Shown here: piece by piece, positions 848 through 35,886 of the stretch
Numbering within the stretch: the stretch's first letter is position 1
How the letters are laid out: every line of letters begins with the position of its first letter
Assembly: GCA_964476545.1 (NCBI GenBank)
Contig: CAYZAZ010000005.1
Span: 1-35,886 of the forward strand
DNA from: an uncultured Gammaproteobacteria bacterium
GTDB lineage: Bacteria > Patescibacteriota > Microgenomatia > UBA1406 > GWC2-37-13
Direction: 5' to 3'
Length of the DNA: 35,886 nt
Made by a program: the position numbers and the translations under genes
Notes under the pieces: generated by a model
What the model saw: the letters and a program-made list of their open reading frames with translations, nothing else
Databases searched by the model: none
Told to the model about the DNA's origin: nothing

Positions 848-854
848 TTTATTT

Positions 855-1124
855 TCAAGAATTTTTAGTTAACCGTCCTAGATTGTAAATAGTACTAAAA
901 AAACCAAAAAAAATCAACAGTAATGTAAAAATATTTCTGGTATTAAATTGTTTATCCAGATATAAACCAACTGGAATAGCAATAATTAAAGGCGCCACAA
1001 TATAAAAACCCACATTTAATAAATAAGCCGGCAAAGGCAAAGATTTTTTTTTAATTTTTGAATTTTCTAATTTTAAATCTGTTGCCTTTAATTCAAAATC
1101 AGTCCCAATCTTATAATTTCCCAT
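855..1124 (-). CDS. AtpZ/AtpI-family small membrane protein (putative ATP synthase accessory protein)
   Basis: 89 aa with two predicted TM helices. The GLYLDKQFNT...FTLLLIFFGF pattern resembles the AtpZ/AtpI family. Positioned 7 nt upstream of atpB. Confidence 0.6.
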   Translation of the reverse strand: MGNYKIGTDFELKATDLKLENSKIKKKSLPLPAYLLNVGFYIVAPLIIAIPVGLYLDKQFNTRNIFTLLLIFFGFFSTIYNLGRLTKNS

Positions 1125-1132
1125 AGACTTTG

Positions 1133-1156
1133 CTAATCACTAACCACTAATCACTA
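1133..1156. repeat. Tandem heptamer array CTAATCA CTAACCA CTAATCA CTA
   Basis: Same heptamer as at 7635-7662. Lies between the dnaE stop and the atpZ-like start. Confidence 0.7.
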
Positions 1157-4100
1157 TTTTAACTGTACCGCATTATCCACCAACACACTCAATTTATCTT
1201 CCCGGTTACTAACTTTTCCTTTTAAAATTATCACATTATTAATACCAATAAATGTTTTGAGTTTTGTAAATATTTTTGGGAATATTACACATTCGATAGA
1301 TCCAGTCTCATCGAAGATTGTTAAAAAAGCCATTTCATGATTGTCCTTTTTTGTCTTTATAATTTTCTTATTGCTGATTAAACCAACTAAAATAACATCT
1401 TTTTTATCATCTTCAATATTTACCTCACCAATTTTTTTAGTTGATTTTTTGGCAATGATGTCTTTAAATTTGTCTAAAGGATTTTTGGTAATCAAAAAAC
1501 CAATTACCTCCTTTTCCATATTATAAATGTCATCTTCAGGAAAATCAGCCATTTTCTCAAAATTATCTTGAAAAACAGAGGCAGTAATGCTTTGCTGAAA
1601 CAAACCAAACTGACCTTTTTCTTTATCATCTTTTAGGGAAGCAATATCCCTTACAAAAATGGGGTAATGATGCATTAATGTGGCTCTATTGGCAAATCCC
1701 GAAAAAGCACTCGCTTTTACTAAACTTTCAATGGTTTTTTTATTTACCCTTCTTAAATCTACCTTAAATAAAAAGTCCTTAAAACTTGTAAAGGATCCGG
1801 CTTTTCTCGATTCCATAATTGAATCAATTGCCGCCTCACCAACATTTTTAATCGCCGAGAGTCCAAATCTAATACCATCATTTTCAATAGAAAAACTATG
1901 TTCTGATTTATTTATATCTGGCGGGTATACTTTTAATTCCATTCTACGACACTCCTCCAAAGCCTGCGACATTTTAATCTCGCGCATTGGGCCGGCCATT
2001 CCCTGAAGTTCTGCCGAAAGAAGAGCAGTCATAAACTCTACCGGATAATTTGCTTTAACATAGGCTGTCCAATAAGCAATTAATCCATATGAAGCCGAAT
2101 GAGGCTTGTTAAACCCATAAGCCGCAAACTTTTCCATAAAGCTAAAGATATTCTCGGCTAATCCTTTTGAATAACCCTTGACTACACAACCTTTAATAAA
2201 TTTTTCTTTTTCTAACTTCATCAGCGACTTCTTCTTTTTTCCCATGGCCATGCGCAAATTATCGGCCTGACTCATTGTGTACCCAGCTAATTTATTAGCA
2301 ATTTCCATTACTTGCTCCTGATAAACTAAAATACCATAAGTCTCTTCGAGAATTGATTTTAAATCAGGATGCAAATATTTAATTTTCTTTGCATTCTTTT
2401 TACCTTCCAAAAACATCGGGATCAGTTCCATCGGACCCGGTCGATAAAGAGCCACCATAGCAGAAATGTCAGACATTTTATTAGGCTGTAATTCTTTCGC
2501 TAACTTTCGCATTCCCCCAGATTCGAGTTGAAAAACACCCACTGTCGCACCAGAAGCAATTAAATCATAGGCTAATTTATTATCTAAGGGAACATGATGA
2601 ATATCAATTTTTTGCTTTTTGAATTTTTCGACAAATTTCAAAGCTTTTTCTAAGATAGTTAAGTTACGCAGTCCCAAAAAATCCACTTTCAAAAGCCCAA
2701 TGGCTCGGTTATTTGAAACAGCATTCAAATCCAAACAATACATGTCATATTGGGAAATAATTCGTCCTTCTTTTGGCTCTTTTTGCAATGGCACGTAATC
2801 TGTAAGATTTGTATCTGAAATAACCACTCCCGCCGCGTGAACAGAAGAATGCCTTGGTAGGCCTTCAACTTTACGAGCAATATCGAGTACTTTTTTTGTG
2901 TCTTTTTCAGTCTGGTAAGCAAATTTAAGCTGTGATGATTCTTCAATTGCTTGAGAAATTGTCATATTAAAACCTTGCTTGCCAGGAGGAATCATTTTTG
3001 CCAACCGATCTCCTTGGGAGTATGACATTCCCAGTGCTCGGGTCACGTCACGTACCGCCAATCTTGCCTCCATTTTTCCGAAAGTAATAATTTGGGCTAC
3101 TTTATCGTCTCCATATTTATTGGTCACGTATTTAAGTACTTCATCACGGCGAATATCAGCAAAATCAATATCAATATCTGGTGGAGTTGGCCGATCTGGG
3201 TTTAAAAAACGTTCAAAGGGCAGATTATATTCCAAAGGATTAATATCGGTAATCCCTAAAACATAAGCCACTAATGAGCCAGCGACAGAACCTCTACCTG
3301 GTCCAACACCAATCTCGTGATTTTTCGCCCAGTTTACAAAATCCTGAACAATTAAAAAATAGGTGCTATAACCTTTACTAATAATAATTTTTAACTCATA
3401 ATCTAGTCTTTTATCAACAACTGATTGGTCATATTGAGAAAGTCTTTTTTTTGTTTGTGTAACCAACTCTTTAAGATATATTTCTGCAGTTTGGCCTTTT
3501 GGTGTGGTAAATTTCGGTAAAATCCAATTCCCATAAGGAATCTCCACATTGCATTCGCTAGCAATTTTTAAAGTATTTTCAATTGCTTCTGGCAAATCAA
3601 GAAAATTATTTTTCATTTCATCTGGTGATTTAAAATAAAAATCAGGGACATCAATCATCGACATGGGACGATTTTTTTCAATAATCGCTCTTTGCGTTTG
3701 GATACAGAGCAAGATTTCTTGAGCATAAGCATCTTCCGCATTTAAATAATGTACGTCATTGGTTGCAACAAGCGGGACACCAAATTTACGAGAAAGTTTA
3801 ACTAGTTGTTGATTCACTTTTTCCTGATCTTCGACTTGTGGATGACGTTGAAGTTCTAAATAAAAATCCTTTTCAAAAATAGTTAAATATTTCTTTAATA
3901 TTTTTTCGGCTTCAATATTTTGATTTTGTAAAAGTAGACTCGCAATTTCACCACTCAGACAGGCGGACAAACCAATTAATCCTTCATGATATTTTTCTAG
4001 AAGTTCAAAATCAATTCGGGGTTTGTAATAAAACCCATCCAAATGTGCCGCCGTCACTAATTTTAATAAATTCTTATACCCTTGCAGATTTTTAGCCAAA

Positions 4101-14684: not shown

Positions 14685-14756
14685 GCGGTGGTAGTTCAGC
14701 GGTAGAATGTCTCCTTCCCAAGGAGAAGGTCGCCGGTTCAAATCCGGTCCACCGCT
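14685..14756 (+). tRNA. tRNA-Gly (anticodon CCC)
   Basis: Hand-folded cloverleaf: acceptor GCGGTGG/CCACCGC, D arm GTTC-AGCGGTA-GAAT, anticodon arm TCTCC-TTCCCAA-GGAGA, T arm GCCGG-TTCAAAT-CCGGT, discriminator T. CCA is not encoded. Confidence 0.9.
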
Positions 14757-14844
14757 CAGAAGGGGGCTATAGTCCTGAGAGCAGTCGAAGGATTCAATTC
14801 CCCTATCCCGCTCATAAATAAAAAGTTACCTAGAAATTACATAA

Positions 14845-15561
14845 ATGAATAATAAATGGGATAAACTTAGCTCTAAGTTTAATGTTCATAAAAATAGAGA
14901 CGAAATAGATCCTGGAGCAGCAGACAATATTCTTATTGCATGGCCACCAATTATTGACTTAATTACCAAACATTTTGGCAATTCCCAGATAAAAGGACTA
15001 AAAGCTTTAGATTATGGATGTGGAACAGGCGGATTCACTCAAAAGTTGGACTCTTTAGGATTTGATGTGATTGGAGTTGATACTTCCGAAGGCATGCTTG
15101 ATCTTGCTAGAAAATATAACAATAACAAAATACATTTTCTAAAAACAGAACAAATTCCAGTGAATGAAAAATACAACCTTATTACTGGAATTATGGTATT
15201 TCAATTTATTGAGAAAATTGAAGAAACTCTTAATCAATTGACCCAACGGTTAAATAAAGATGGGTTAATAGTATTTGCTGTTTTTAATCCAAAATTTGTT
15301 GCTTCATGTCTAAAGACACATGTTTTGTTTTCTCATTTTGATTCAGAAAGTAATCCAAAGAGAGGAATTATTAGCTTTGGGAAAGAATTAGATATTCAAA
15401 CCTTTATAAGAAACGCCGATGATTATAACAAAATCATGAATAATTTAGGTTTAAGTAAAAAATTAGAAGCGTATCCGAAATTTACGCAAGAATATTTAGA
15501 TAAATACCCTATTAATACACCAATTGATGAATCTGAGTATCTGATTTTAAGTTATTGTTAA
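14845..15561 (+). CDS. Class I SAM-dependent methyltransferase
   Basis: 238 aa with SAM-binding motif I (ALDYGCGTGGFT) followed by the acidic loop VIGVDTSEGM. Confidence 0.8.
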   Translation: MNNKWDKLSSKFNVHKNRDEIDPGAADNILIAWPPIIDLITKHFGNSQIKGLKALDYGCGTGGFTQKLDSLGFDVIGVDTSEGMLDLARKYNNNKIHFLKTEQIPVNEKYNLITGIMVFQFIEKIEETLNQLTQRLNKDGLIVFAVFNPKFVASCLKTHVLFSHFDSESNPKRGIISFGKELDIQTFIRNADDYNKIMNNLGLSKKLEAYPKFTQEYLDKYPINTPIDESEYLILSYC

Positions 15562-15680
15562 AATTGGATCAATATTTTTTATAACTTTTTATACCCATTC
15601 AATCTTTAAGTAAATGTAGACCCTTATGGCCATAAATTGAATCACAAGGAAATATTTTGCAAACAAAAGGTGACAAATTT

Positions 15681-15689
15681 TGGTAATAT
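15681..15689 (+). promoter_or_regulatory. Extended -10 element (TGgTAATAT) 6 nt upstream of the Bro-N gene ATG
   Basis: Same geometry as the LysM promoter: TGGTAWTAT-N6-ATG. No SD. Confidence 0.45.
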
Positions 15690-15695
15690 TTTGAT

Positions 15696-16523
15696 ATGTT
15701 ATCTCGCAAAATTGCCCTTTTTCAAGGTAACCGAATTCGTCGTTTATGGAACGATAAAGAAGAAAAATGGTATTTTTCTATTATAGATGTTGTAGCAGTA
15801 TTAACAGCGAGCACAAATCCCCAAGTTTATTGGAGAGTTCTTAAAAAAAGATTAATCGACGAAGGTTCAAATGAAACCGTTACAAAATGTAACGGGTTGA
15901 AAATGTTAGCCACTGACGGAAAAATGAGATTGACTGATGTCGCTGATACAGAAGTTCTGCTCCGAATAATTCAAAGTATCCCTTCACCAAACGCAGAACC
16001 ACTTAAACTTTGGCTAGCACGAGTTGGCTATGAACGACTTGAAGAAACAGCAGATCCAGAACTGACCATCAATCGTGCACTAAAAACATATTTACAAAAA
16101 GGTTACAGCCGAGAATGGATAAATCAACGTTTAAAAAGTATTGAAGTCCGCAAGGAATTAACCAATGAATGGGAAAATCGTGGAGTTAAAGAAGGATTGG
16201 AATTTGCGATTTTAACAAATGAAATAACTGAAGCTTGGGCTGAACTAACAACCAAACAATATAAACAGCTCAAAGGTTTAAAAAAACAAAACCTGAGAGA
16301 TAATATGACAAATTTGGAGTTGGTACTAAATATGCTTGCAGAAACAGCTACAACTGAAATCTCACAGAAAAAACAACCTAAAAACTTCCCCGAAAATAAA
16401 AAAGTAGCACGTGAGGGAGGAACCGTTGCTGGAAATGCCCGAAAAGAAATTGAATCAAAAACTAAAAAAAAAGTAATCACCAGTAAGAACGCAAAAGATT
16501 TAAAATTACTGAAGCAAAAATAA
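15696..16523 (+). CDS. Bro-N domain protein (phage-antirepressor / DinD-like)
   Basis: 275 aa. N-terminus (FQGNRIRRLWNDKEEKWYFSIIDVVAVLT ... NAEPLKLWLARVGYERLEE) matches my recollection of Bro-N family proteins. Lys-rich C-terminal tail. Confidence 0.7.
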   Translation: MLSRKIALFQGNRIRRLWNDKEEKWYFSIIDVVAVLTASTNPQVYWRVLKKRLIDEGSNETVTKCNGLKMLATDGKMRLTDVADTEVLLRIIQSIPSPNAEPLKLWLARVGYERLEETADPELTINRALKTYLQKGYSREWINQRLKSIEVRKELTNEWENRGVKEGLEFAILTNEITEAWAELTTKQYKQLKGLKKQNLRDNMTNLELVLNMLAETATTEISQKKQPKNFPENKKVAREGGTVAGNARKEIESKTKKKVITSKNAKDLKLLKQK

Positions 16524-16628
16524 TGACCTACTAATCCTCAAATTTTTGGCACTTGGAATTTAAAATAAACTTCTAGATGTTATACTTTATTTAGCCAGTT
16601 AGGCGCAACAGTATCCTCAGGGGCAACT

Positions 16629-16702
16629 GCCTTTTTAGCTCAACGGTAGAGCAGCGGTATCGTAAACCGTAGATGTCAGTTCAATTCTGACAAAAGGCTC
16701 CA
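16629..16702 (+). tRNA. tRNA-Thr (anticodon CGT), CCA encoded
   Basis: Hand-folded cloverleaf: acceptor GCCTTTT/AAAAGGC, D arm GCTC-AACGGTA-GAGC, anticodon arm GCGGT-ATCGTAA-ACCGT, T arm GTCAG-TTCAATT-CTGAC, discriminator T, CCA at 16700-16702. Confidence 0.9.
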
Positions 16703-24581: not shown

Positions 24582-27242
24582 GTGAGAAAAATCAAGATTC
24601 TAATCTTTATTTTTTTCTTGCTATTTATACCCGACAGAGTTTCTGCCTTTGATTCATTTACCCGAAATCAAAATAATCCCTTGCCAGTAGAGTATGTTTC
24701 ACCTTTTAACACCAATCAACAAGTTCATGTTTATTTTGAAGATAATATCTTTAAAGCAATATTCTCCACGAAACAAATTGGTCAAACAGCTCATTCATTA
24801 GTCTATGGTAATTCAAGTGACGGACTAAACTGGAAACAAGAAAAAATAATTCTAACCAGTCCAGAAGACCTCTCCAATCCAAGAGTTACTAGATTAAACG
24901 AAACTAGTATTAAAATATATTTTACTCGCTTGGATAATGATGGTCTCTATCGCCAATATAGTATAAATTGCGATAATAATTTCAACTGTTCAGATATAGT
25001 TTTAGTCCTCCAACCAAGTTATTATTGGGAAAATTATGGTAATTTTGCCGCTTTTCCATTTTCCCAAAATTCCACTAATTATTTGTTTTATGGTGCTTGG
25101 GGGCCGGGTGGATTTAGAATTAATTTAGCAACTCAAGTAAATAATACCTGGGAAAAATGTACTACCGCCACTCTTCCATCGGCAGATGGCCCTTTTGTCT
25201 TTGAAGAAAATGGAGTTACCTATCTATTTTTTCACAATTCAAATGACCCTCATGCTATTAATTATGTTCAAACTACTGAACCAATTTCCTGCACTACTCA
25301 CTGGTCTGATCGCCGACCTGTTTTATTTTCTCAAGAAAGTTATGATTTAAGACATCTTATTTTTCCCTCTATTGTTAAAAAAGATAATGTTCATTATCTC
25401 TATTATTCGGGATATGCCGTAGATAATATTTGGCGGCTAAATTTAGCTACCGATCATGAAATTGCCCAAAATAAAACACCCCTTATTATTCTACCGGGCT
25501 TCATGGGCTCTTGGAATAAACAGGCTATTCTTCATAATGAAACTATCAATCAAACAGATTGGATACTCAATCCGATTGTTCATGAGTATGATGGACTTAA
25601 ACAAACACTAAACAATATCGGATATGTTGAAAATTCAGATTACTATTTTTTTTATTACGACTGGCGTAAGGGACTAAATGGACTTGCCGATGATCTTAAT
25701 AATTTTATTACAACCAATAACCAATTACCTGTAACAAATATTCAAATAGTTGGTCATTCTCTTGGTGGCTTAGTTTCTCGAATATATTTTCAAAAACACA
25801 GTCCTACAAATATCTCAAAAATTATTACCCTTGGTTCACCTCATCAAGGAACTCCCCAAGCTTACACTGCGGTGGAAGCAGGTGAATTAAATACCGAAAA
25901 TAATTTGCTATGGCTTGCCCAAAAATTAATTCTCCAAATTAACAAAAATAGCCTCGTGACTGACAAACAACTAATTAGTGATAAATTTCCGATTGCCCGC
26001 GACCTCCTCCCTATCTATAATTTTCTAAAAAATAACAATGACCAGATAATAAACATATCCGATATGGTAGAAATGAATAATAATTTACTTTCGTATCAAC
26101 CCACCTTACCCACGACTAATACCGTTCTAACCACGATCGTGGGTGAGACGGTATCAACAATTTCAGGCTACAAAATCGGAGCAAGAACAATCTTTGATCA
26201 ACTACTCAATTACTATCCCGACGGCCGGCCAACAGAAAGCTTTTATGAAATCGGTGATGAAACAGTTATTTCCTCAAGTGCCAAAATTAATAGTAATCCC
26301 CAAATTTTAAACTTAAATCATGGAGAGTTAGTTTATAAAAAAGAAGGTATAAAAGCCATATTAGATACTTTATCAATTCCTTATCAAGAAAGTCAAATTG
26401 TTGAGGGAAGTCGCACCCAAATTTTTCCTTCGCTTATCTTTTTAGTATTTTCACCAGTTACTTTAAAAGTAAATTTTTTAAATAACACATATTTAGAAAA
26501 TAATGGAATTATCCATATTCCCAATCCTCAATCTGGCAGTTATGCACTTGAGGCGACTGGCAATACGCCTGGTCGCTATACTATTCTCATCGGTCAACTA
26601 ACAGAAAATAAAAATGTGTGGTCAAAAATTGAGGGAAAAATAAATAGCTTGCCTCAAGTTGATAGTTATTCATTTGAATTTAATTTAAACTCACCCCAAG
26701 AGATAGAAACATCCAGTGACATTGCAGGCCAATTTGACGAATTAATTATTTATTTAAGCGACATAAATCTCACCTTAAAAAAAGCTGACATAAATAAATC
26801 AATTACCAATCTCCAAAAAGCCAAAGAATATTTTCAACAAAAAAGTTATGGAAAATTAAAACCAGCTCTTCAACTTACTCAAAATCAAATTTTAATTACA
26901 ATAAATGGAATTAGTGGAGAAAATAAAGCCAAATTACTATCCGCGCTCGAAAAACTGGAAAAAATATATTCAATTTCTCTCCAAACCTACTCATTTGGAG
27001 TTTTCCCTCAAAGATTAAAAACTGATTTAACTAATCTCAAAAAAACAGTTCTTTCTCATCAACAATACTTGCTAACAAACAAAAATGCAGGAAAAAATGT
27101 TTTTCTCAACTCTCTCTTACTTTCTCAAATTGATTTAAAAATTAAAAAAGCAGAAAATTCCCTAAATGAAAAACTGTATAATTCCACCGAAGTCCTCCTC
27201 AAATCCGCAAGTGAATTATTAAAAAATGTAAGAAGGTTATAA
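24582..27242 (+). CDS. Secreted multidomain protein: beta-propeller-like N-domain, alpha/beta-hydrolase (lipase/LCAT/PGAP1-like) domain and a helical C-terminal region
   Basis: 886 aa, GTG start, signal peptide ending VSA/FD. The N-domain has repeated YxFY/YLFF/YLYYSG strands suggesting a GH43/GH32-like propeller. The lipase-type motifs are PLIILPGFMGSW, the nucleophile elbow GHSLGG and LGSPHQGT. Confidence 0.7.
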   Translation: MRKIKILIFIFFLLFIPDRVSAFDSFTRNQNNPLPVEYVSPFNTNQQVHVYFEDNIFKAIFSTKQIGQTAHSLVYGNSSDGLNWKQEKIILTSPEDLSNPRVTRLNETSIKIYFTRLDNDGLYRQYSINCDNNFNCSDIVLVLQPSYYWENYGNFAAFPFSQNSTNYLFYGAWGPGGFRINLATQVNNTWEKCTTATLPSADGPFVFEENGVTYLFFHNSNDPHAINYVQTTEPISCTTHWSDRRPVLFSQESYDLRHLIFPSIVKKDNVHYLYYSGYAVDNIWRLNLATDHEIAQNKTPLIILPGFMGSWNKQAILHNETINQTDWILNPIVHEYDGLKQTLNNIGYVENSDYYFFYYDWRKGLNGLADDLNNFITTNNQLPVTNIQIVGHSLGGLVSRIYFQKHSPTNISKIITLGSPHQGTPQAYTAVEAGELNTENNLLWLAQKLILQINKNSLVTDKQLISDKFPIARDLLPIYNFLKNNNDQIINISDMVEMNNNLLSYQPTLPTTNTVLTTIVGETVSTISGYKIGARTIFDQLLNYYPDGRPTESFYEIGDETVISSSAKINSNPQILNLNHGELVYKKEGIKAILDTLSIPYQESQIVEGSRTQIFPSLIFLVFSPVTLKVNFLNNTYLENNGIIHIPNPQSGSYALEATGNTPGRYTILIGQLTENKNVWSKIEGKINSLPQVDSYSFEFNLNSPQEIETSSDIAGQFDELIIYLSDINLTLKKADINKSITNLQKAKEYFQQKSYGKLKPALQLTQNQILITINGISGENKAKLLSALEKLEKIYSISLQTYSFGVFPQRLKTDLTNLKKTVLSHQQYLLTNKNAGKNVFLNSLLLSQIDLKIKKAENSLNEKLYNSTEVLLKSASELLKNVRRL

Positions 27243-27248
27243 GTTCAA

Positions 27249-28007
27249 TTATGCCGAAACAGGCAAATCAGTTTGTATAGTTACTGGAAAAATAAATGGA
27301 TTATCTACTTCAACTGGAGGATTAGACCCTGCACCACCAGTTAACTTATTCCAAATATCTTCGCTATTAAGCGCTGTCACTCGTGCATTAGCTAAAGAAA
27401 AACCAATCTTCCCAATCTTTCCACTTGTTATTTGTTGTGCTGAATCAAATTTAAATTCGAGACCAATATCATGACATATAGTTTCAAATAATTCACCACT
27501 TACTTCCTTCTCGTTTATATCTCTATCTGTACATTCTAAAGTAATTGCTTTTATATCTCCATTACTAAGTCTTGAAACTATAAACGTCGAGGAACTATTA
27601 TCACCTATAAGTTCATGTCGTTTTAAATCATCTAAATATTTTTTTTCCAAAATAATTTGAATCTCCTGTGTTTCTAACCAAGTATTTAAATCTTCAATTT
27701 GATTAGCTCGAGTAAAAACCATTAACTTTTCAACATCTTTACTTAAACCAGAAGATAATACCAAAGCTGAATGCATACCATCATCTGATAAAGCAATATC
27801 AACTTCATATTTTCCATTTGGATCTCTATATGATTGCCTTATTGATTGATTTTCGCCTGCTAATTCAACACTATTTAATGGACCCATCCAAAATTGATGC
27901 TGATGGTAGGGGCCTTGAAGCCTTTTATTTTGGGTAGAATCAATAAATTTTTTCCATTTTTCAAATTGAGGAAAATACTGTGATGGTCTATTATTTTCTA
28001 CTGACAT
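27249..28007 (-). CDS. Hypothetical protein, paralogue A of a tandem pair
   Basis: 252 aa with no signal peptide or TM segment. Shares N-terminal (PQFEKWKKF vs PQFEELKRF) and C-terminal (DIGL.F.F...G.IGKI.F.LAN...IWN.LTG...NPFIFPV) blocks with the adjacent ORF. Confidence 0.6.
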   Translation of the reverse strand: MSVENNRPSQYFPQFEKWKKFIDSTQNKRLQGPYHQHQFWMGPLNSVELAGENQSIRQSYRDPNGKYEVDIALSDDGMHSALVLSSGLSKDVEKLMVFTRANQIEDLNTWLETQEIQIILEKKYLDDLKRHELIGDNSSSTFIVSRLSNGDIKAITLECTDRDINEKEVSGELFETICHDIGLEFKFDSAQQITSGKIGKIGFSLANARVTALNSEDIWNKLTGGAGSNPPVEVDNPFIFPVTIQTDLPVSA

Positions 28008-28045: not shown

Positions 28046-28705
28046 TTAGTAATTATCTATCTCCACACTTACAGGAAAAATAAAAGGATTGCCCTGTCCT
28101 TTTCCTGTCAAAGAATTCCAAATATTTTCTTTATCAAGCACAGTCTCAGCGACATTAGCCAGATTAAATCTTATTTTTCCAATTTGACCAACTATATTAT
28201 TATCCATTTGTCCAAAACCAAAGGACAATCCAATATCTTCACATATTTTATCAAGTGCTTCGCTACTTAATTCATCACTTTGAGGTAAACTTATTTCAAT
28301 TTTTTGGAAAGGCACCCAATCTTTTTTGTTTAAAGGTCGGTTAGCTTCACTCAATATATGGATATGATCAACAATTCCATTAATATAAATTACCAAATCA
28401 CTAAATATATGGTGATCACTTAAGCCTGTTTTAATAATATATCTACCAGCAAAATCACTATATTCTTGAGTAATTGATTCCGGTCTATATTTATGACCAA
28501 GATGAGCATAATTTACCTTCGTATCAATAAATCTAGGATTTGTATAACCAAATCCCGTATATATACCATCGTCAAAGGAATATTTTGGTAATGCATGCAC
28601 AAATCTTTTTAATTCTTCAAATTGAGGTAATAATTCCGTAGGGTTTAATCTACCAAAATTGTGCGGAAGCATTAATGTCTTTAAAATTGATGTTTCTGCT
28701 GACAT
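28046..28705 (-). CDS. Hypothetical protein, paralogue B of a tandem pair
   Basis: 219 aa, collinear similarity to 27249-28007. Has clustered His residues (HLGH, DHH, DHIH) and its own canonical promoter immediately upstream. Confidence 0.6.
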   Translation of the reverse strand: MSAETSILKTLMLPHNFGRLNPTELLPQFEELKRFVHALPKYSFDDGIYTGFGYTNPRFIDTKVNYAHLGHKYRPESITQEYSDFAGRYIIKTGLSDHHIFSDLVIYINGIVDHIHILSEANRPLNKKDWVPFQKIEISLPQSDELSSEALDKICEDIGLSFGFGQMDNNIVGQIGKIRFNLANVAETVLDKENIWNSLTGKGQGNPFIFPVSVEIDNY

Positions 28706-30373: not shown

Positions 30374-30402
30374 TTGACAAATTAATTTTATATATTTATG
30401 AT
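30374..30402 (+). promoter_or_regulatory. Sigma70-type promoter of the TasA-like gene (TTGACA-N17-TATGAT)
   Basis: TTGACA at 30374-30379, a 17-nt spacer and TATGAT at 30397-30402. This gives a leader of about 55 nt ending in a strong SD (30444-30454). Confidence 0.6.
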
Positions 30403-30461
30403 GTTATTTGTATTAAGAATATTTATAAATTTCACAAAAAAAGAGAGGGGGTGAAAAATAA

Positions 30462-31019
30462 ATGAAAAGAATTATTTTATCTTTAGTATTAGTCGTAGGA
30501 ACAATATTTGCCAGCATTGCTTATACTAGAGCAGCTTGGACAGATACTGTAACTGTTACTAATAACATAATTACAACAGGAACAGTTGATCTAGAAGTAT
30601 CAACAGACAGTGGTACAACTTGGGATTCCACAACTGCTTCCTCAACGATGACTCTATCAAATTTAGCACCAGGTGCAGCAGCAACATCAGCCTATTCATT
30701 CTCACTCAGAAATTCTGGAACAGTAGGCCCAATGACGCTTAGCGCTCAAGTCACTTCAACAAACATCACACCAACTGCTGGAGTAGATAAATCAATGTTA
30801 TATTTGACTATCTATGATACAGATACATTGGCAGATGTCTCAGCTGAAGTTACTATGTTAGCTTGGGAATCTGGATTACAAGCATTGACAACAACGCTTC
30901 CATCCGGAGGAACACCAGCTAATTTTGGTATAAGAGCTCGTTTAGATACAACAGCAGACAATACATGGCAAGGACAAACCGTGACATTTACTTTAAGTGT
31001 TACTGGAACCCAACCATAA
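30462..31019 (+). CDS. TasA/camelysin-family secreted protein with SipW-type signal peptide (candidate fibre subunit)
   Basis: 185 aa. The N-terminus MKRIILSLVLVVGTIFASIAYTRAAWTDTVTVTNNIITTGTVDLEV parallels the camelysin/TasA pattern ...GGGTFAYFSD...NNTFAAGTLDL. The internal NLAPG...SFSLRNSGTV and C-terminal NTWQGQTVTFTLSVTGTQ parallel DLKPGD...LQNRGS and FQGDSL..W.F.A.Q. Strong SD GAGGGGGTGA. Confidence 0.8.
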   Translation: MKRIILSLVLVVGTIFASIAYTRAAWTDTVTVTNNIITTGTVDLEVSTDSGTTWDSTTASSTMTLSNLAPGAAATSAYSFSLRNSGTVGPMTLSAQVTSTNITPTAGVDKSMLYLTIYDTDTLADVSAEVTMLAWESGLQALTTTLPSGGTPANFGIRARLDTTADNTWQGQTVTFTLSVTGTQP

Positions 31020-31033
31020 TTTGTCAATTCTTT

Positions 31034-31059
31034 GGAAGCCTGAAACAATTCAGGCTTCC
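31034..31059 (+). terminator. Perfect 11-bp hairpin between the TasA-like gene and the SipW-fusion gene (terminator or attenuator candidate)
   Basis: GGAAGCCTGAA-acaa-TTCAGGCTTCC. The sequence downstream is T-rich but not an uninterrupted T-run. Confidence 0.45.
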
Positions 31060-31088
31060 TCTAGAATTTAAAAAATTTTTCATTATTA

Positions 31089-34000
31089 ATGAGTAAAGTA
31101 TTAAAAATCATTTGGCGAATTCTTCCTACAATTATTTTAGTGCTTACTAGCGTTTCAATTTTGACTATTTTACCGCTTCGAAATTCTCCTTTTAAGGCAT
31201 TTATCGTAACTACAGGAAGTATGCGACCAAAAATTCCAGAAGGTTCAATCGTTTTTGTTGATAGAAAACCTTCAAAACCATTAAAAACCAATGACATTAT
31301 TACTTTTAAAAAACCAAATAATCCAATTGACAATGTAACTCACCGTATTGTTAAAATAATTTTAAAGTCAGGAAAACCAGTTATTATCACCAAAGGAGAC
31401 GCAAATAATTCAAATGACGTTTGGGATCTAAAAAAAGATGCTATTTGGGGAAAGGTTGTTTTTTCTCTTCCGTATATCGGCTACTTTGCTAATTTTGCAA
31501 AAACTAAAATTGGTGTAATTATTTTAGTGCTTATTCCTCTCGGATTTATTGCAATTAGTGAACTGTTTGTAATATTTAAAGAAGTAGAGAAATTTAAAGA
31601 AAGAAGAAGAAAGAAAAAGCAAAAAAATTCTTCTACTGAAATTTTATCCAAAACACTACCTCTTCTTCTTATTTTTTTAAATATAACGCTATTAAATAGT
31701 TTTGGAGTTTTTACAGATAGAATTACTAGTACATTAGCTGTTGTTACTACAAAATGCTGGACTAACCCATTACAACCAACATCGTTATTACCAAACAATA
31801 ATACAGTTAGTAACAGTACTGATATTAACTTTAGTTGGCCTGCGACCACTTCAAACTGCCCAATTGCCACTCTCGAATATAATTTTCAAATTTTTAGTGA
31901 CTCATCTTTAACAACTCTTGTTACTGAGTCCGGATTTTTATCTAATCTATCTTTCAACTATACATCTATTCCCGAGGGAGAGTATTGGTGGAGAGTTCAA
32001 GCTAAAGATCAATATAATAATACATCTAATAGTACTTCCCATCATTTAATTATAGACAGAACCAGTCCAACAGTTCCCGGACAGATTGATTGGACGACTG
32101 AAAATCCACCAAGCGGATCTGATTACATTAGTGGATCGGACTTTGATAATTTTAAAACTTGTAATGGAGCGTTAAATTATTCTCCAATGACTAACCTTTG
32201 GTCGCCCTCAACTGATACAAATAGTTTTACTTATGAAAGAGAAGTCTATTCTCCAATTGGCAATCTTATATATTTTCATCTTGGAATGACAACTAATTAT
32301 GAAAATGGTGGTGGAGCAGTTGATGGAACCACCTATTGGGTGCGAATAAGAGCCAAAGATATTGCCGGAAATTATAGTGCTTGGACAAGCAAATGCGCAA
32401 TTACTTACGACACAACTTCCCCTTCAATCCCCTCTCTTTCCGTTACCGGCTCATTTACTAAGGCAGTTGAGGAAAAAATTAATAATAGTGATTTTGAAAC
32501 TGGCGATCTGACTAATTGGAGAAGCGCTGGCGACGTACAAGTTATGACAACCGATAATGGTAGTACTCCGGACTTTACCGTCACTCCTTATGATGGTGTA
32601 TACATGACCCGAATTGGCCAAGCGAGTTCTTATGTTTGGGAAAATAGATTAATGGGTTCATTTGACTCTGGCGCCAAAAGTCTTTCCATGCGCTACAACT
32701 TTTTTAGCCGTGATGCCGGCAGTCAAGACAATCCAGGATTTTTCATCCGTTTGAATGGTCAAGAAATATTTTCCTTAAATACCAGTAGCGTCAATCCAGG
32801 CGCAATCAATGATGGCAATGCAAGGTCTACTGATTGGCAAGAATATAAATACGATTTAAGTAATGTTACTGATTCCAAAATTAATTTAGCCATGTATGCA
32901 GGCAATACAAGTGATACTTTAAATAATTCCTGGGTTTATGTTGATAAAATCACCACTTACTTTGTCTCTGCCCCGGCCCATGCAATTTATGATTTATCAG
33001 GTAGTGATAATCTTGGTGGTTCCGGTATTAGTCATTTTGAATATGATATCGATGGCTCAGGTTGGCTAACAGGTAATTCTTTTGGTAATGTTGCTCCATT
33101 TTCAAATGGAGGCACTCATACTTTACTTTACCGCTCAATTGACAACGCCGGCAATTCGAGTGCTATTTCAACAGTCAGAATTATTACCGATGACATTGCA
33201 CCAAGCACTATTTCTGATCTAGCCGTTACCTCAACGAGTAATACTGCTAATTTAACTTGGACTGCTCCCGGAAATGATGGTACTTCCAATCGTGCGAGTT
33301 CTTATGACATAAGATATTCCACCTCAAATATTACCGATGACACAACTTTTAATTCGGCCACTAAAGTAGAAAAGGTTCCTGTTCCCAAAGAACCAGGCGA
33401 AACTGAAAATTTAGAAATTATTGGCCTTAATCCATCAACTCTTTATTACTTTGCAGTTAAAACTAGTGATGAAGCACCCAATACATCTTTACTTTCCAAT
33501 GTTCCTTCAGACACAACCAGTGCCGGATCAACAATTAACGCCGGTGATCTTATCATCAACGAATTAATGTGGATGGGTTCCAGTCAAGGTGCAGATGACC
33601 AATGGATTGAACTACGCAATATGACCGATCATGCCATTGATTTAACCAATGTAACCTTCACCAAATATGATGGTACAACAGATATTTTAATGTTAACAAT
33701 TCCATCAGGGAACATCCCAGCCCATGGATATTTCTTAATTGCCAACTTTGCCAATACTGCTTCTAAATTAAAAGACAGTCTCACCGTCGATTTAGTTACC
33801 ACTGATGTCGATTTAAGTAATGCTAATTTATCAATAAAACTTTTTGATTCTACCTTAAATATGATCGATGAAGCTTGGGATCAGTCAGCTCCAATTGAAG
33901 GAATTTATGACGCGACTCCTGGTAGTGAAAAATATTATTCAATGGAGAGAACTTCTGTTCCCGGAAATGGAACCGATCCTCTAAATTGGTATACTTGTAT

Positions 34001-34319
34001 TGATGAAGCTTCTAAATCAGATTTCTTTGATAATACGGCTGATGAAAGAGGCACGCCAGGCGCAACTAACCGTTCAGAAAACGAACCCTATGTCGAAAAT
34101 CCAACTCAATCACCCACTCAATCACCCATGCCAACAATTGAGATTACACCTGTTCCAGAATTTACAGAAACACCAGTTCAGCCCACCCCAACAATCTTTT
34201 CAACCCCCGGGGTTGAAAGTGAAGTTACGCCAACTATTGAACCAACGGTCGAGCCCACAAATCAACCAGTTAGTGAACCAACTAACGAACCAATTACTGA
34301 TCCAACACCCACAATATGA
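31089..34319 (+). CDS. SipW/archaeal-type (S26B) signal peptidase I fused to a large extracellular adhesin-like region (Ig/FN3-like, CBM-like, lamin-tail domain, Pro/Thr-rich tail)
   Basis: 1076 aa. Residues 1-165 read TM, then VTTGSMRPKIPEGSIVFV...ITF...VTHRIV...TKGDANNSND, then TM, matching the SipW/ER-type peptidase boxes. Residues 166-210 form an internal signal-peptide-like segment ending FGVFTD. Downstream are WRVQAKD../WVRIRAKDIAGN Ig-like modules, NSDFETGDLTNW (CBM4/9-like), FN3 (TWTAPGNDG...YDIRYS), lamin-tail motif INELMWMGS..DQWIELRN and a PT-rich tail. Confidence 0.8.
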   Translation: MSKVLKIIWRILPTIILVLTSVSILTILPLRNSPFKAFIVTTGSMRPKIPEGSIVFVDRKPSKPLKTNDIITFKKPNNPIDNVTHRIVKIILKSGKPVIITKGDANNSNDVWDLKKDAIWGKVVFSLPYIGYFANFAKTKIGVIILVLIPLGFIAISELFVIFKEVEKFKERRRKKKQKNSSTEILSKTLPLLLIFLNITLLNSFGVFTDRITSTLAVVTTKCWTNPLQPTSLLPNNNTVSNSTDINFSWPATTSNCPIATLEYNFQIFSDSSLTTLVTESGFLSNLSFNYTSIPEGEYWWRVQAKDQYNNTSNSTSHHLIIDRTSPTVPGQIDWTTENPPSGSDYISGSDFDNFKTCNGALNYSPMTNLWSPSTDTNSFTYEREVYSPIGNLIYFHLGMTTNYENGGGAVDGTTYWVRIRAKDIAGNYSAWTSKCAITYDTTSPSIPSLSVTGSFTKAVEEKINNSDFETGDLTNWRSAGDVQVMTTDNGSTPDFTVTPYDGVYMTRIGQASSYVWENRLMGSFDSGAKSLSMRYNFFSRDAGSQDNPGFFIRLNGQEIFSLNTSSVNPGAINDGNARSTDWQEYKYDLSNVTDSKINLAMYAGNTSDTLNNSWVYVDKITTYFVSAPAHAIYDLSGSDNLGGSGISHFEYDIDGSGWLTGNSFGNVAPFSNGGTHTLLYRSIDNAGNSSAISTVRIITDDIAPSTISDLAVTSTSNTANLTWTAPGNDGTSNRASSYDIRYSTSNITDDTTFNSATKVEKVPVPKEPGETENLEIIGLNPSTLYYFAVKTSDEAPNTSLLSNVPSDTTSAGSTINAGDLIINELMWMGSSQGADDQWIELRNMTDHAIDLTNVTFTKYDGTTDILMLTIPSGNIPAHGYFLIANFANTASKLKDSLTVDLVTTDVDLSNANLSIKLFDSTLNMIDEAWDQSAPIEGIYDATPGSEKYYSMERTSVPGNGTDPLNWYTCIDEASKSDFFDNTADERGTPGATNRSENEPYVENPTQSPTQSPMPTIEITPVPEFTETPVQPTPTIFSTPGVESEVTPTIEPTVEPTNQPVSEPTNEPITDPTPTI

Positions 34320-35626
34320 AAAATTTAACTAAATATCTAATTAATTTTACAATTATTTTTTATTCATTATTCTTTATTAATTTATCTTTTACATTTGCCG
34401 CTGATTTTAATTTAGACTGTACCGGTTCAGGATGTAATAAAACAGGTATTGAACCTCTCTTTAATAATACGACCGATGGCGTCTGGTACCCAGGCCGAAC
34501 TCTTACAAAATCAATTAATTTGAAAAACTCTTCCGCTGATTCTAAAGAAATGGATATTAAACCAACAAGAACATCCACTTCAAATATTTTAGAAGATGTT
34601 ATGCAGATTAGTATTGTTACAAATCCAGGTGGCTTAGTAATTTGGGCTGGAAGCTTGAGTGATTTTTATAATCAAACGAAAATAAATATGGGAACATTTT
34701 CCTCGGGAGTAAATCAAGATTATAACTTTAGTGCCACTATGAACTCATCTGCCGACAATAGCTATCAAAATTTAGAGTCAGTTTTTGATTTGACTCTTGG
34801 TTTTTGGGAAGAATCACCCACGCCTACTCCAACAGATGCTGGTGGAGGCGGTGGCGGAGGAGGAACAAGTGACGGATCAGTTTCTGGCGCCTCAGCACCA
34901 GTTTGTAATGACACTGCACCAGCCAGCGCCCCAAATATTTTATTTGCAACAGGTGGAACCAATAGTGTCACTTTAACTTGGAGTGAAGCATCTGCTCCAG
35001 TTTCTTATTATTTAGTGGCTTATGGCGCTTCTCCAAGTAATAATACATATGGTAATCCCAATGTCGGAGGAAATGGCACAACAAGCTACACTGTCTCTGG
35101 CTTATCAGGTGGCACTAACTATTGTTTCATTGTTCGCGCAGGGAATGGTTGTAAGCCAGGTCCTTTTTCAGGTCAAGTTTGTGCAACTCCTGGAGGAATT
35201 TTTATTCCTGCTGGACCAGCCGCTGGCTTTGCCGAAGGCGTCCTCGGAGAAGCTACTCAATCGGCGGAATTAAGCTCCACCCCATCAGCCGGAATTCTTG
35301 GCGCAACTCAAAATAAAACTTGTAAAGATTGTCTTTGGTGGCAGATACTTCTTGGAGAGTTTATTGTTCTTTTAGCTTTTTATTTTATATTAGTAAAAAA
35401 ACTACACAAAAAAGTAAAATACACTGCTTATTTTGGAATTTTTATTCCAATTTTAACCTATATTATATTTCTTTGGTTAAATAGAAATTGCTTTGGTGGC
35501 TTTAAATTTACCTTTATTATTCCTTCAATTAATTTTTTCTGTAAATATTTTCTTATCTTAGCGACAATTCTTTATACAGCGGTCACACTTTATTGGAGAC
35601 ATAAAAAAACAGAAGTAGTTAAATAA
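34316..35626 (+). CDS. Membrane-anchored protein: N-terminal signal/anchor, TasA/camelysin-like domain, Gly/Pro-Thr linker, FN3 domain and three C-terminal TM helices
   Basis: 436 aa. Its start overlaps the upstream stop (ATGA). VWYPGRTLTKSINLKNSS and ...NSYQNLESVFDLTLGF parallel the TasA-family PGD...KN.GS and C-terminal FQG...F motifs. Also has a G8 linker, an FN3-like SVTLTWSEASAPVSYYLVAYG...YCFIVRAGN, and hydrophobic helices after residue ~340. Confidence 0.65.
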   Translation: MKNLTKYLINFTIIFYSLFFINLSFTFAADFNLDCTGSGCNKTGIEPLFNNTTDGVWYPGRTLTKSINLKNSSADSKEMDIKPTRTSTSNILEDVMQISIVTNPGGLVIWAGSLSDFYNQTKINMGTFSSGVNQDYNFSATMNSSADNSYQNLESVFDLTLGFWEESPTPTPTDAGGGGGGGGTSDGSVSGASAPVCNDTAPASAPNILFATGGTNSVTLTWSEASAPVSYYLVAYGASPSNNTYGNPNVGGNGTTSYTVSGLSGGTNYCFIVRAGNGCKPGPFSGQVCATPGGIFIPAGPAAGFAEGVLGEATQSAELSSTPSAGILGATQNKTCKDCLWWQILLGEFIVLLAFYFILVKKLHKKVKYTAYFGIFIPILTYIIFLWLNRNCFGGFKFTFIIPSINFFCKYFLILATILYTAVTLYWRHKKTEVVK

Positions 35627-35718
35627 AGTGGATACCGTCCAGAAAGTGGCACCTAATATAACCACTTTAACTTGATTTAGTATAACAAACTCTTCATAAA
35701 TGGGGCATATAAAAAATT

Positions 35719-35818
35719 GTCATTCTGGCAAACGATGAGTGCTGAAGTGCGTCCAGAATCGTCGTCTAAACAACGATCCTGGATAATCCTTCGATAAACT
35801 CAGGATTACCAGGATGAC
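35719..35818. repeat. Intergenic double-hairpin palindromic element with GTCATTCTGG / CCAGGATGAC termini
   Basis: Terminal inverted repeat matches 9 of 10. Inner pairings are ATTCTGG...CCAGAAT and ATCCTGGATAATCC...GGATTACCAGGAT. Confidence 0.6.
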
Positions 35819-35846
35819 TATTAAATGTAAAATAGAGTACAAATGA

Positions 35847-35875
35847 CAAAAAAGAGCGGGTTATTCTACCGCTCT
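35847..35875 (-). terminator. Rho-independent terminator for a minus-strand gene lying beyond the right edge
   Basis: Minus strand: AGAGCGG-tagaataac-CCGCTCT followed by TTTTTTG. Confidence 0.5.
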
Positions 35876-35886
35876 ATTTCTAAGGG

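Follow-up and report, generated by a model that had tools for sequence, protein, structure and literature searches.

Here we describe a three-gene locus in a stretch of 35,886 nucleotides (hereafter, the window) that spans positions 1 to 35,886 of contig CAYZAZ010000005.1 (assembly GCA_964476545.1) from an uncultured, ultra-small bacterium titled Gammaproteobacteria and placed by GTDB in Patescibacteriota (Microgenomatia; UBA1406; GWC2-37-13). We consider it very probable that this locus encodes a TasA-type donor-strand fibre system with a dedicated signal peptidase. In this system, gene 1 would be the shaft subunit, gene 2 combines a SipW-type peptidase with a large adhesin-like ectodomain that opens with what looks like a copy of the gene 1 donor strand, and gene 3 carries a TasA-like domain without such a strand on a membrane anchor. 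The features of the locus are as follows.

30374-30402, plus strand: putative sigma-70-like promoter 5′ of gene 1, TTGACA-N17-TATGAT, by consensus match only
30443-30454, plus strand: Shine-Dalgarno (SD) sequence GAGAGGGGGTGA, 7 nt before the gene 1 ATG
30462-31019, plus strand: gene 1, open reading frame (ORF) of 185 amino acids (aa)
30462-30533, plus strand: gene 1 signal peptide of SipW-cognate type, aa 1-24, predicted cut YTRA↓AWTD
30534-30581, plus strand: gene 1 candidate donor strand, aa 25-40, AWTDTVTVTNNIITTG
30582-31019, plus strand: gene 1 predicted beta-sandwich (jelly-roll) body, aa 41-185, and stop codon; putative major fibre subunit
31034-31059, plus strand: perfect 11-bp stem-loop between genes 1 and 2, after the gene 1 stop
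31089-34319, plus strand: gene 2, ORF of 1076 aa
31089-31643, plus strand: gene 2 S26B/SipW-type peptidase module, aa 1-185, with a first transmembrane helix (TM1), catalytic domain, and TM2
31644-31706, plus strand: gene 2 internal signal-peptide-like segment, aa ~186-206, a hydrophobic TM3 ending in NSFG
31707-31754, plus strand: gene 2 donor-strand-like segment, aa 207-222, VFTDRITSTLAVVTTK, then CW-x-x-P
31755-34319, plus strand: gene 2 adhesin-like ectodomain, aa 223-1076, with the Pfam/NCBIfam domains in the next four lines
gene 2 aa ~246-329: Ig-like domain, sub-threshold match to Big_3_3
gene 2 aa 635-698: OmpL47-type barrel, barrel_OmpL47, E 2.6e-14, above the NCBIfam cutoff
gene 2 aa 708-794: FN3 domain, fn3, E 3.8e-06, above the Pfam gathering score
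gene 2 aa 817-928: lamin-tail domain (LTD), E 1.8e-11, above the Pfam gathering score
34316-35626, plus strand: gene 3, ORF of 436 aa
34316-34399, plus strand: gene 3 signal peptide, aa 1-28, predicted cut TFA↓ADFNLDC
34400-34810, plus strand: gene 3 TasA-like jelly-roll, aa 29-165, with no donor strand
34934-35173, plus strand: gene 3 FN3 domain, aa 207-286, after a Gly-rich linker; Pfam E 1.6e-10, FN3 matches in the PDB, and a predicted local distance difference test score (pLDDT) > 90
35321-35626, plus strand: gene 3 membrane anchor, aa 336-436, with CxxC, three predicted TM helices, and a basic C-terminus

The stop codon of gene 2 and the start codon of gene 3 share an ATGA, which points to translational coupling of gene 3 to gene 2. 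An earlier interpretation made from the letters alone (the sequence-only reading) had described three consecutive plus-strand ORFs with this overlap, and our ORF scan returned exactly its coordinates. The two motifs it had singled out in gene 1, AYTRAAWTD and TGTVDLEV, are both present. Its further assignments, i.e., a TasA/camelysin-like gene 1, a SipW/archaeal-type peptidase at the start of gene 2, and a second TasA-like domain followed by FN3 and a membrane anchor in gene 3, were all borne out by the searches reported below, with gene 1 emerging as a divergent member of the superfamily.

The predicted cut of gene 1, YTRA↓AWTD, parallels that of TasA (GTWA↓AFND) and is presumably where the protein is processed, within a visible TRA↓AWTD...TGTVDL motif. 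Several gene 1-type relatives match the SipW-cognate signal-peptide model TIGR04088, the best with 28.9 bits (cutoff 19) and another with 17 bits. The Pfam family PF12389 (Peptidase_M73) matches 13 of 34 close homologues (best E 1.4e-5), and genes at the same position in distant Patescibacteria loci (designated L001, L002, and so on) pass its cutoff, with 39.3 and 25.9 bits in L018, 42.0 bits in L065, 32.0 bits in L013, and 27.9 bits in L042, the match spanning nearly the full model in L013 and L042. A hidden Markov model (HMM) of gene 1 reaches most of these syntenic genes at 1e-7 to 1e-22. The family is large, with 1395 representative clusters at E <= 1e-3 and 202 at E <= 1e-10. Searched by sequence against the PDB, gene 1 and its family profile gave nothing significant, TasA (5of1/8aur) appearing at E 0.36-0.48.

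An AlphaFold2 (AF2) model of gene 1, computed from the 34-sequence alignment, has a mean pLDDT of 82, and the body scores 82-97 per 10-residue block. When this model was compared to the PDB using Foldseek, all seven matches at E <= 0.001, and the next two, were donor-strand-complemented filament subunits. These include FimA variants, the TasA fibre 8aur (E 3.3e-4, probability 1.00, TM-scores 0.45/0.37), the Pyrobaculum bundling pilus 7ueg, the Sulfolobus thread 7pnb, and the Pyrodictium cannulae 9h8b, so the fold predicted for gene 1 is related to the TasA jelly-roll. In TasA, the donor strand is made up of the first 11 mature residues (28-38) and completes the next subunit (PMC9674648). Conservation in the gene 1 family peaks at residues 22-47, where W26, V30, N35, T39, and G40 are invariant, and residues 18-39 are the only unplaced part of the mature protein in the monomer model, with a pLDDT < 50. 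Such low confidence in a monomer is expected since the strand would be exchanged between subunits. Considering its peak conservation, its position after the cut, its low pLDDT, and its equivalence to TasA 28-38, we read AWTDTVTVTNNIITTG (aa 25-40) as the donor strand of gene 1.

Taken literally, the name Peptidase_M73 would make gene 1 a secreted camelysin-like metalloprotease, with the weak PF12389 match of gene 1 speaking for it. Gene 1 contains neither His nor Cys, and there are only seven His in its entire 34-member family, none of which is conserved. Without a conserved His or Cys, there is no plausible zinc site, and we rejected a camelysin-type metalloprotease as extremely improbable. 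The protease activity of TasA and camelysin is itself doubtful.

Judging from its sequence, gene 2 starts with an intact, active-looking S26B-type peptidase. Residues 3-154 match TIGR02228, the archaeal-type signal peptidase I model, with 93.9 bits (cutoff 51.85), and the Peptidase_S26 match is above the Pfam gathering score. Enzymes of the S26B/SipW class use a catalytic Ser and His plus a conserved Asp in place of a Ser-Lys dyad, as known from SipW mutagenesis. The corresponding residues Ser44 (SGSM), His85 (THR), and Asp104 (GDAN) are kept in all 14 of the aligned gene 2 homologues (14/14). Since the match to the Bacillus SipW equivalog NF046067 (97.5 bits) is under the 190-bit cutoff, the enzyme is best described as SipW-like, not as an equivalog of Bacillus SipW.

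The region following the peptidase module, which was absent from the account given by the sequence-only reading, is central to our interpretation. A KR-rich loop (aa 169-177), still inside the peptidase module, precedes the hydrophobic TM3, which is followed by small residues. This n-h-c organisation is visible in the sequence and is kept in fused homologues. Past TM3, gene 2 reads NSFG↓VFTDRITSTLAVVTTKCW, for which the gene 1 counterpart is A↓AWTDTVTVTNNIITTGTV, and homologues show the same element, for example AAFSDTTSVTNSQVATSCW and AVFTDTVFSANQQISTGDW. When a position-specific scoring matrix (PSSM) of gene 1 family residues 24-41 was run along these proteins of ~1000 aa, the site after TM3 was the top window in 10 of 11 database homologues, and in the free-standing protein of L004 the top window was the extreme N-terminus. 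The arrangement resembles that of a SipW-type signal peptide placed internally, with what appears to be a second version of the gene 1 donor strand after it.

The remainder of gene 2 is the adhesin-like ectodomain, with a Pro/Thr-rich C-terminal tail. No jelly-roll was found in the gene 2 of the window, as neither the gene 1 HMM nor an HMM of the gene 3 N-terminal domain matches inside it. A strand copy without a jelly-roll would make this protein donor-only, that is, able to donate a strand but unable to accept one. It follows from the internal signal peptide and strand copy that gene 2, and not gene 3, would be the TapA-like component. The resemblance to TapA appears to be functional and is drawn by analogy, with no match of gene 2 or gene 3 to any TapA/YqxM model (NCBIfam, E <= 1).

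The strand of the gene 2-type protein is far closer to the gene 1 donor strand of its own locus than to those of other loci. The gene 1 and gene 2-type strands are, respectively, YYTDSVTLSGITFSTG and SFLDFVTLSGITITTG in L012, YFSDTETSSGNRITAG and SFVDLETSAGNRIVAG in L013, and AFTSNSVTITGVVLSS and SFTSGLATITGVTLST in L011. Across 16 loci, strand identity between gene 1 and gene 2-type proteins averages 7.1/16 within loci vs 4.05/16 between loci (permutation p <= 5e-5), a result that stands after dropping three near-duplicate loci.

Gene 3 presents the complementary picture. Its signal peptide is presumably cut at TFA↓ADFNLDC, and the mature N-terminus AxA↓ADL(N/D)V-C is conserved in its family. 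When the gene 1 and gene 3 families were compared using hhalign, they aligned with a probability of 97% and an E-value of 1.2e-10 (residues 67-180 of gene 1 with 56-161 of gene 3) and have PG, N.S, and N.(W/Y)Q motifs in common. The homology of the gene 3 N-terminal domain rests on this comparison. The mature N-terminus of gene 3 finds its counterpart not in the donor strand of gene 1 but in GTVDLEV, where the body has its first strand. Consistent with this, the number of residues from position +1 to PG has a median of 29 (24-32) in the gene 3 family vs 45 (43-50) in the gene 1 family, and this difference of 16 is the length of the donor strand. In principle, then, gene 3 could serve as an acceptor, though not as a donor, of a strand. 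PF12389 matches 0 of 53 gene 3 family members, and Pfam FN3 is found in gene 3 (E 1.6e-10) and in 52 of the 53.

The AF2 model of gene 3 (mean pLDDT 81.5) consists of the signal peptide, a beta-domain (31-163), the Gly-rich linker, FN3 (208-290), and three helices within 341-435 (341-362, 367-388, and 412-435). In the N-terminal domain, pLDDT blocks are mostly 83-93 over aa 31-150, then drop to 75 and 63 towards aa 165. C336 and C409 are nearly invariant. The sequence-only reading had suggested that gene 3 might play a TapA-like role in anchoring or nucleation. The first part fits an acceptor-only anchor or terminator, whereas nucleation does not since gene 3 has no donor strand.

The C-terminal part of gene 3 has a wider distribution. 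An FN3 domain (YYFxVRAGNGCxPG) followed by GPAxGFxxGVLG, a low-complexity spacer, a TM helix, and a Lys/Arg tail forms the C-terminus of many Microgenomates proteins of 1000-2700 aa, examples being L024 4465-8691, L025 1435-9528, L027 5830-9537, L033 3286-9531, and L041 1792-9534. Gene 3 (34934-35626) bears a 3-TM version of this module, with CxxC. The combination of FN3, GPAxGFxxGVLG, and TM looks like a lineage-specific surface-anchor or sorting signal.

We examined the conservation of the locus in 80 loci from GTDB species representatives, collected via the gene 3 family, plus 5 found by exact-protein look-up, which were scanned with HMMs of the modules. The names attached to homologues, namely Gottesmanbacteria, Roizmanbacteria, Levybacteria, Daviesbacteria, and Shapirobacteria, put the organism of the window in Patescibacteria, within the Microgenomates. 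The order gene 1-type gene, SipW (free or fused), donor-only protein, and gene 3 occurs in ~16 distinct Patescibacteria loci. It is complete in L001, L003, L004, L005 (L019 being the same locus), L006, L007, L008, L011, L012, L013, L016, L018, L020, L042, and L065. Two loci are partial: the sequence of L010 ends just upstream of SipW, and L029 has a 178-aa gene 1-type gene that was missed by the gene 1 HMM. Whenever a gene 3 N-terminal domain is preceded by more than ~1.4 kb of sequence, SipW is present in every such locus and a gene 1-type gene in nearly all. The sequence-only reading had proposed a survey of related genomes and had named three outcomes that would speak against it; we found instead matches to the expected families, a gene 1 fold related to TasA, and co-occurrence of the trio.

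SipW is free-standing (175-250 aa) in L004, L006, L012, L013, L016, L018, L020, L029, and L042. In the window and in L001, L003, L005, L007, L008, L011, and L065, amounting to about half of the related loci, the donor-only protein continues from its C-terminus as a fusion. For the reading of gene 2, setting these two groups side by side is decisive. Where SipW is free, a neighbouring gene, usually the next downstream, opens with an N-terminal signal peptide (A-x-A↓YF(T/S)D), followed by a donor-like strand and then by CW..P and Ig-like domains. The c-region of the gene 2 in the window, NSFG↓V, is less canonical than the AxA of the other loci examined.

Several of these loci show variations on the theme. 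L010 encodes (688-3618), downstream of a separate SipW gene, a 977-aa protein with a SipW-type signal peptide, donor strand, jelly-roll (PF12389, 27.4 bits), Big, FN3, and LTD domains, and this protein is plausibly an evolutionary intermediate that links gene 1 to the ectodomain of gene 2. Subunit and donor-only protein occur as two tandem sets in L018 (4797-8887), L042 (4203-8920), and L065 (4445-9001), with two SipW genes in L042 and L065. In these loci, the strand of each donor-only protein matches that of its own neighbouring subunit, which suggests two fibre types, or specificity pairs, per cell. A gene with a CAP domain (PF00188) lies within ~3 kb 3′ of the cassette in L001 (12712-13860), L003 (8949-10049), and L005 (11877-13062), each time followed by a gene of ~90 aa. 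A similar-looking gene of ~280-300 aa comes right after the gene 3-type gene in L042 (10375-11220), L065 (10575-11438), and, less clearly, L016 (9911-10819). The CAP-domain gene may be a further conserved component of the cassette. Finally, many of the metagenome-assembled genomes bearing the locus (L010, L013, L014, L020, L025, and others) are titled "uncultured Gammaproteobacteria," "Pseudomonadales," "Alphaproteobacteria," or "Clostridia bacterium," which are most likely placeholder or wrong labels.

The signals around gene 1 are those of a strongly expressed gene. The putative promoter at 30374-30402, which the sequence-only reading had called near-consensus, scores 11 of 12 against the consensus, ahead of every other site in the region. 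That reading had also ranked the SD of gene 1 as the strongest in the window, and we quantified this by pairing a canonical anti-SD sequence with the 25 nt that precede each gene of the window, 29 in all, and computing the duplex energy. The value for gene 1 is -15.4 kcal/mol, and the other 28 genes are at -3.4 kcal/mol or weaker. The SD motif GGAGGUGAAAA is kept upstream of gene 1-type genes in related loci, where 20 such genes have a median of -15.2 kcal/mol vs -1.7 kcal/mol for 45 other genes from the same loci (Mann-Whitney p = 5e-6). These findings are in keeping with the shaft subunit being produced in far larger amounts. No window gene other than gene 1 has an SD that can be recognised as such, here a near-perfect GGAGGUGA, and the pattern is the same in related loci; the organism seems to start translation largely without SD sequences, yet keeps a near-perfect one for gene 1. 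Downstream of gene 1, the region 31015-31090 folds with a minimum free energy of -23 kcal/mol (z = -5.06), and none of 200 shuffled sequences (0/200) folds as well. The stem-loop at 31034-31059 is not followed by a clean U-run and could be an attenuating terminator or an mRNA stabiliser.

Very high expression would also suit a protein forming a two-dimensional surface coat or sheath, similar to an S-layer, to which genes 2 and 3 would contribute accessory surface proteins. Beta-sandwich proteins do build S-layers, and a relative from the TasA superfamily reportedly forms a para-crystalline fibril lattice (bioRxiv 10.64898/2026.01.04.697558). However, the best structural matches of gene 1 are linear donor-strand filaments, and the combination of a donor-only and an acceptor-only part implies a one-dimensional polymer with two distinct ends. 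We therefore view a coat as very unlikely.

What mechanism might unite these parts? Before it can extend its own strand, a TasA-type subunit has to be complemented (PMC9674648; PMC10151520). TapA combines a SipW-dependent signal peptide and an N-terminus resembling the donor strand of TasA with an Ig-type domain that is complete from the outset; it nucleates TasA by giving a strand and is itself closed to extension (PMC9674648; PMC10151520). By extension, the gene 2 peptidase would process gene 1 and its own ectodomain (cutting the latter near G206↓V207), and possibly gene 3 as well, by removing their signal peptides. TM3, with its cut-type motif NSFG↓VFTD, would act as an internal signal peptide, the peptidase thus being fused to its own substrate. 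The freed ectodomain would donate its strand to a gene 1 monomer, starting or capping the fibre and bearing the adhesive domains, and the complemented monomer, as argued for TasA, would then be free to insert its 16-residue strand into the beta-sandwich of the one that follows. At the end of the chain, the gene 3 domain would receive the donor strand still unpaired, and the FN3 stalk and three-helix anchor would fix the fibre to the membrane. Fusing peptidase and nucleator would ensure that the nucleator is released where subunits are processed. We give this complete polar arrangement, from the membrane through gene 3 and a (gene 1)n shaft to the gene 2 adhesin, about an even chance of being correct.

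The polarity depends on whether gene 2 is cut. If its ectodomain stayed uncleaved and tethered by TM3, it could instead be the proximal nucleator and anchor, with gene 3 capping fibres or capturing those of neighbouring cells. TapA has been described as a membrane- or cell-associated anchor (PMC10151520), fusion to a membrane enzyme would provide an obvious anchor, and the less canonical NSFG↓V in the window is in keeping with a lack of cleavage. Against this, the same element in unfused loci is an ordinary SipW-type signal peptide, A-x-A↓YF(T/S)D, like that of gene 1, and the fused forms retain small residues at -1 and -3. Moreover, the TasA donor strand is at a free mature N-terminus (PMC9674648), and a strand leaving a TM helix directly would be sterically constrained. 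Taken together, this makes a reversed polarity distinctly improbable.

A different possibility concerns gene 3, which might be an independent membrane-anchored adhesin or receptor, while the gene 2 ectodomain nucleates a matrix fibre that is released as in Bacillus biofilms. The matrix fibres of B. subtilis TasA have no known membrane-anchored acceptor (PMC9674648), and many unrelated giant surface proteins end in the generic FN3 and TM anchor that gene 3 also has. In addition, a disulfide hairpin at the N-terminus of gene 3 (aa 31-44) is confidently folded in the AF2 model and might self-complement the groove. An unrelated adhesin would, however, hardly be expected to lack precisely the donor strand and yet keep the acceptor body, nor to be ATGA-coupled to gene 2, and the loci with a gene 3 N-terminal domain and more than ~1.4 kb of upstream sequence all have SipW, and nearly all a gene 1-type gene. 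Overall, we regard a released fibre with an unconnected gene 3 as unlikely.

That hairpin is one of several observations that count against an anchored TasA-type fibre in which strands pass from gene 2 to gene 1 and from gene 1 to gene 3. For gene 3, a Foldseek search with the full model gave a list swamped by FN3 matches and hence no direct comparison of its N-terminal domain with TasA. For gene 2, the strand registers used in the permutation test were assigned by eye, and in the two closest loci, L001 and L003, the gene 2 strand is identical to that of its own gene 1 at only 2-3 of 16 positions. A 28-position HMM of the gene 1 N-terminus found the right site in five gene 2 homologues, with E-values of 0.1-0.6 that are like those of shuffled sequences. 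Since such a short HMM is individually insignificant, the support for the strand copy in gene 2 is positional and comparative. For gene 1, there was no NCBIfam match at E <= 1, TIGR04088 included, and PF12389 was reached with 16.8 bits (E 0.0064), under the gathering score of 22.5. With its syntenic relatives above that score, gene 1 is thus best viewed as a divergent relative of the superfamily, not as a scored member. Likewise, its Foldseek TM-scores are modest (0.35-0.45), which places it at the superfamily level and not as a close relative.

Among known systems, the closest is the tapA-sipW-tasA operon of B. subtilis. In both, an S26B/SipW-type peptidase adjoins its substrates. Gene 1 is predicted to share with TasA a SipW-type signal peptide, a donor strand at the N-terminus, and a body that is a beta-sandwich, and TapA, like the gene 2 ectodomain, has a copy of the donor strand ahead of Ig-like domains that are not jelly-rolls. 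The N-terminal strand mimicry between TapA and TasA (PMC9674648) has its parallel in the gene 2 and gene 1 strands here. The differences are that 1) the subunit gene comes first, 2) peptidase and donor-only protein are joined in one polypeptide in the window and in roughly half of the related loci, 3) this donor-only protein is far larger than TapA (~870 aa, with LTD, FN3, and OmpL47-type domains), 4) an acceptor-only TasA-like domain on a membrane anchor, i.e., gene 3, has no Bacillus counterpart, and 5) gene 1, unlike TasA, is sub-threshold for PF12389 and its host is a Patescibacterium.

The archaeal AbpA/AbpB bundling pili come next. AbpA of Pyrobaculum calidifontis (PDB 7ueg), a top-five Foldseek match of gene 1, is a TasA homologue that also uses donor-strand complementation. 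AbpB, encoded downstream of AbpA, has been proposed to be the first strand donor with distal beta-domains serving as adhesin (PMC9245690), which is reminiscent of gene 2. Unlike our locus, the ABP operon has no dedicated signal peptidase (PMC9245690), no membrane-anchored acceptor-only subunit has been described for it, and it belongs to another domain of life with another operon content.

Chaperone-usher (type 1/P) pili are alike in principle only. They too rely on donor-strand exchange and specialised end subunits, and FimA is the best Foldseek match to gene 1. In FimH, an adhesin is joined to an acceptor pilin domain without a donor strand, and another subunit is the terminator. The polarity is opposite to the one inferred here, where the acceptor-only protein would be the membrane base and the donor-only protein would bear the adhesin. 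These pili require a chaperone, an usher, and an outer membrane, none of which is part of the system here; periplasmic chaperone and outer-membrane usher genes were found neither in the window nor in the related loci examined. The chaperone-usher and TasA families are evolutionarily unrelated according to Bohning et al. (PMC9674648). Lastly, proteins of the TIGR04088 class resemble ours in the motif at the signal peptide and mature N-terminus and in having an S26B peptidase as neighbour, and JGI so names one homologue. The gene 1 and gene 2 segments are nevertheless under threshold, and the model describes a class of signal peptide, not the three-part architecture.

PF12389 homologues in Patescibacteria were already noted in a Pfam survey by Wang et al. 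2022 (PMC9245690), so the presence of the family there is not new, whereas the architecture is. In the literature that we could search, with most subscription journals outside its coverage, there was nothing on this locus, on a SipW fusion, on a donor-only giant protein, or on an anchored acceptor-only domain in Patescibacteria, the candidate phyla radiation (CPR), or Microgenomates. The sequence-only reading had likewise not recognised the architecture as described.

The remaining window, which is low in GC (~33%), contains ordinary housekeeping and envelope genes, including those for ATP synthase subunit a, DnaE, GatA/GatB, MurT/GatD, HtpX, LemA, glycosyltransferases, a flippase, and an ABC-3 metal transporter. 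The absence of sortase, pilin, and type IV pilus genes asserted by the sequence-only reading holds for this 36-kb window, as opposed to the whole genome. Pfam/NCBIfam-type scans found no sortase domain among the 29 window ORFs, although no dedicated search for LPXTG motifs was made. An Rfam scan of the window detected two tRNAs and no other RNA element. The 260 nt that follow gene 3 (35627-35886) contain no ORF, and Rfam finds nothing there. They close with a small GC-rich hairpin and then T-rich sequence (~35852-35876), which could be the operon terminator.

Three other regions of the window merit mention. On the minus strand, 27249-28007 and 28046-28705 are adjacent paralogues of 252 and 219 aa without a Pfam match, which have IGKI.F.LAN and NPFIFPV in common and sit between the metal ABC transporter and a large lipase-like gene. 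The latter (24582-27242, GTG start) encodes an 886-aa protein with a central LCAT/PGAP1-like alpha/beta-hydrolase (lipase) domain, the rest of its sequence being without assignment, and may act as a lipase outside the cell or on its surface, with a bearing on a host-dependent lifestyle. Within 14685-16702, a gene for a Bro-N domain protein (15696-16523) is flanked by tRNA-Gly(CCC) and tRNA-Thr(CGT). This gene and one for a methyltransferase may be what is left of a phage or mobile element that had inserted at a tRNA.

A good part of bacterial diversity belongs to Patescibacteria (CPR), whose presumed way of life is attachment to other cells. To our knowledge, there are no cultures of Microgenomates, and almost no surface machinery is known in them beyond type IV pili. 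The locus described here is a concrete and widespread candidate for an attachment fibre, with ~16 distinct loci among up to 80 sampled and 1395 clusters of subunits. Tentatively, and with rather less confidence than in the polar arrangement itself, we propose that monoderm bacteria may have here a third kind of cell-anchored pilus, next to those of type IV and those built by sortase. Such a pilus would be ATP-independent, with an acceptor-only base in the membrane, a shaft, and a donor-only adhesin tip, all specified by adjacent genes, each fused peptidase would release one fibre starter at the site of processing, and the whole would serve Microgenomates as an attachment organelle.

The implications extend to the TasA/TapA/SipW paradigm. 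That peptidase and substrate are naturally fused speaks for a common site of action of SipW and the nucleator. If true, the acceptor-only anchored domain would answer a question posed by the Bacillus system, namely what becomes of the last free donor strand and how the fibre is tied to the cell. The co-variation of donor strands within loci offers a way to pair subunits with nucleators from sequence only. For the organisms themselves, this cassette could be how these Microgenomates attach to surfaces or hosts.

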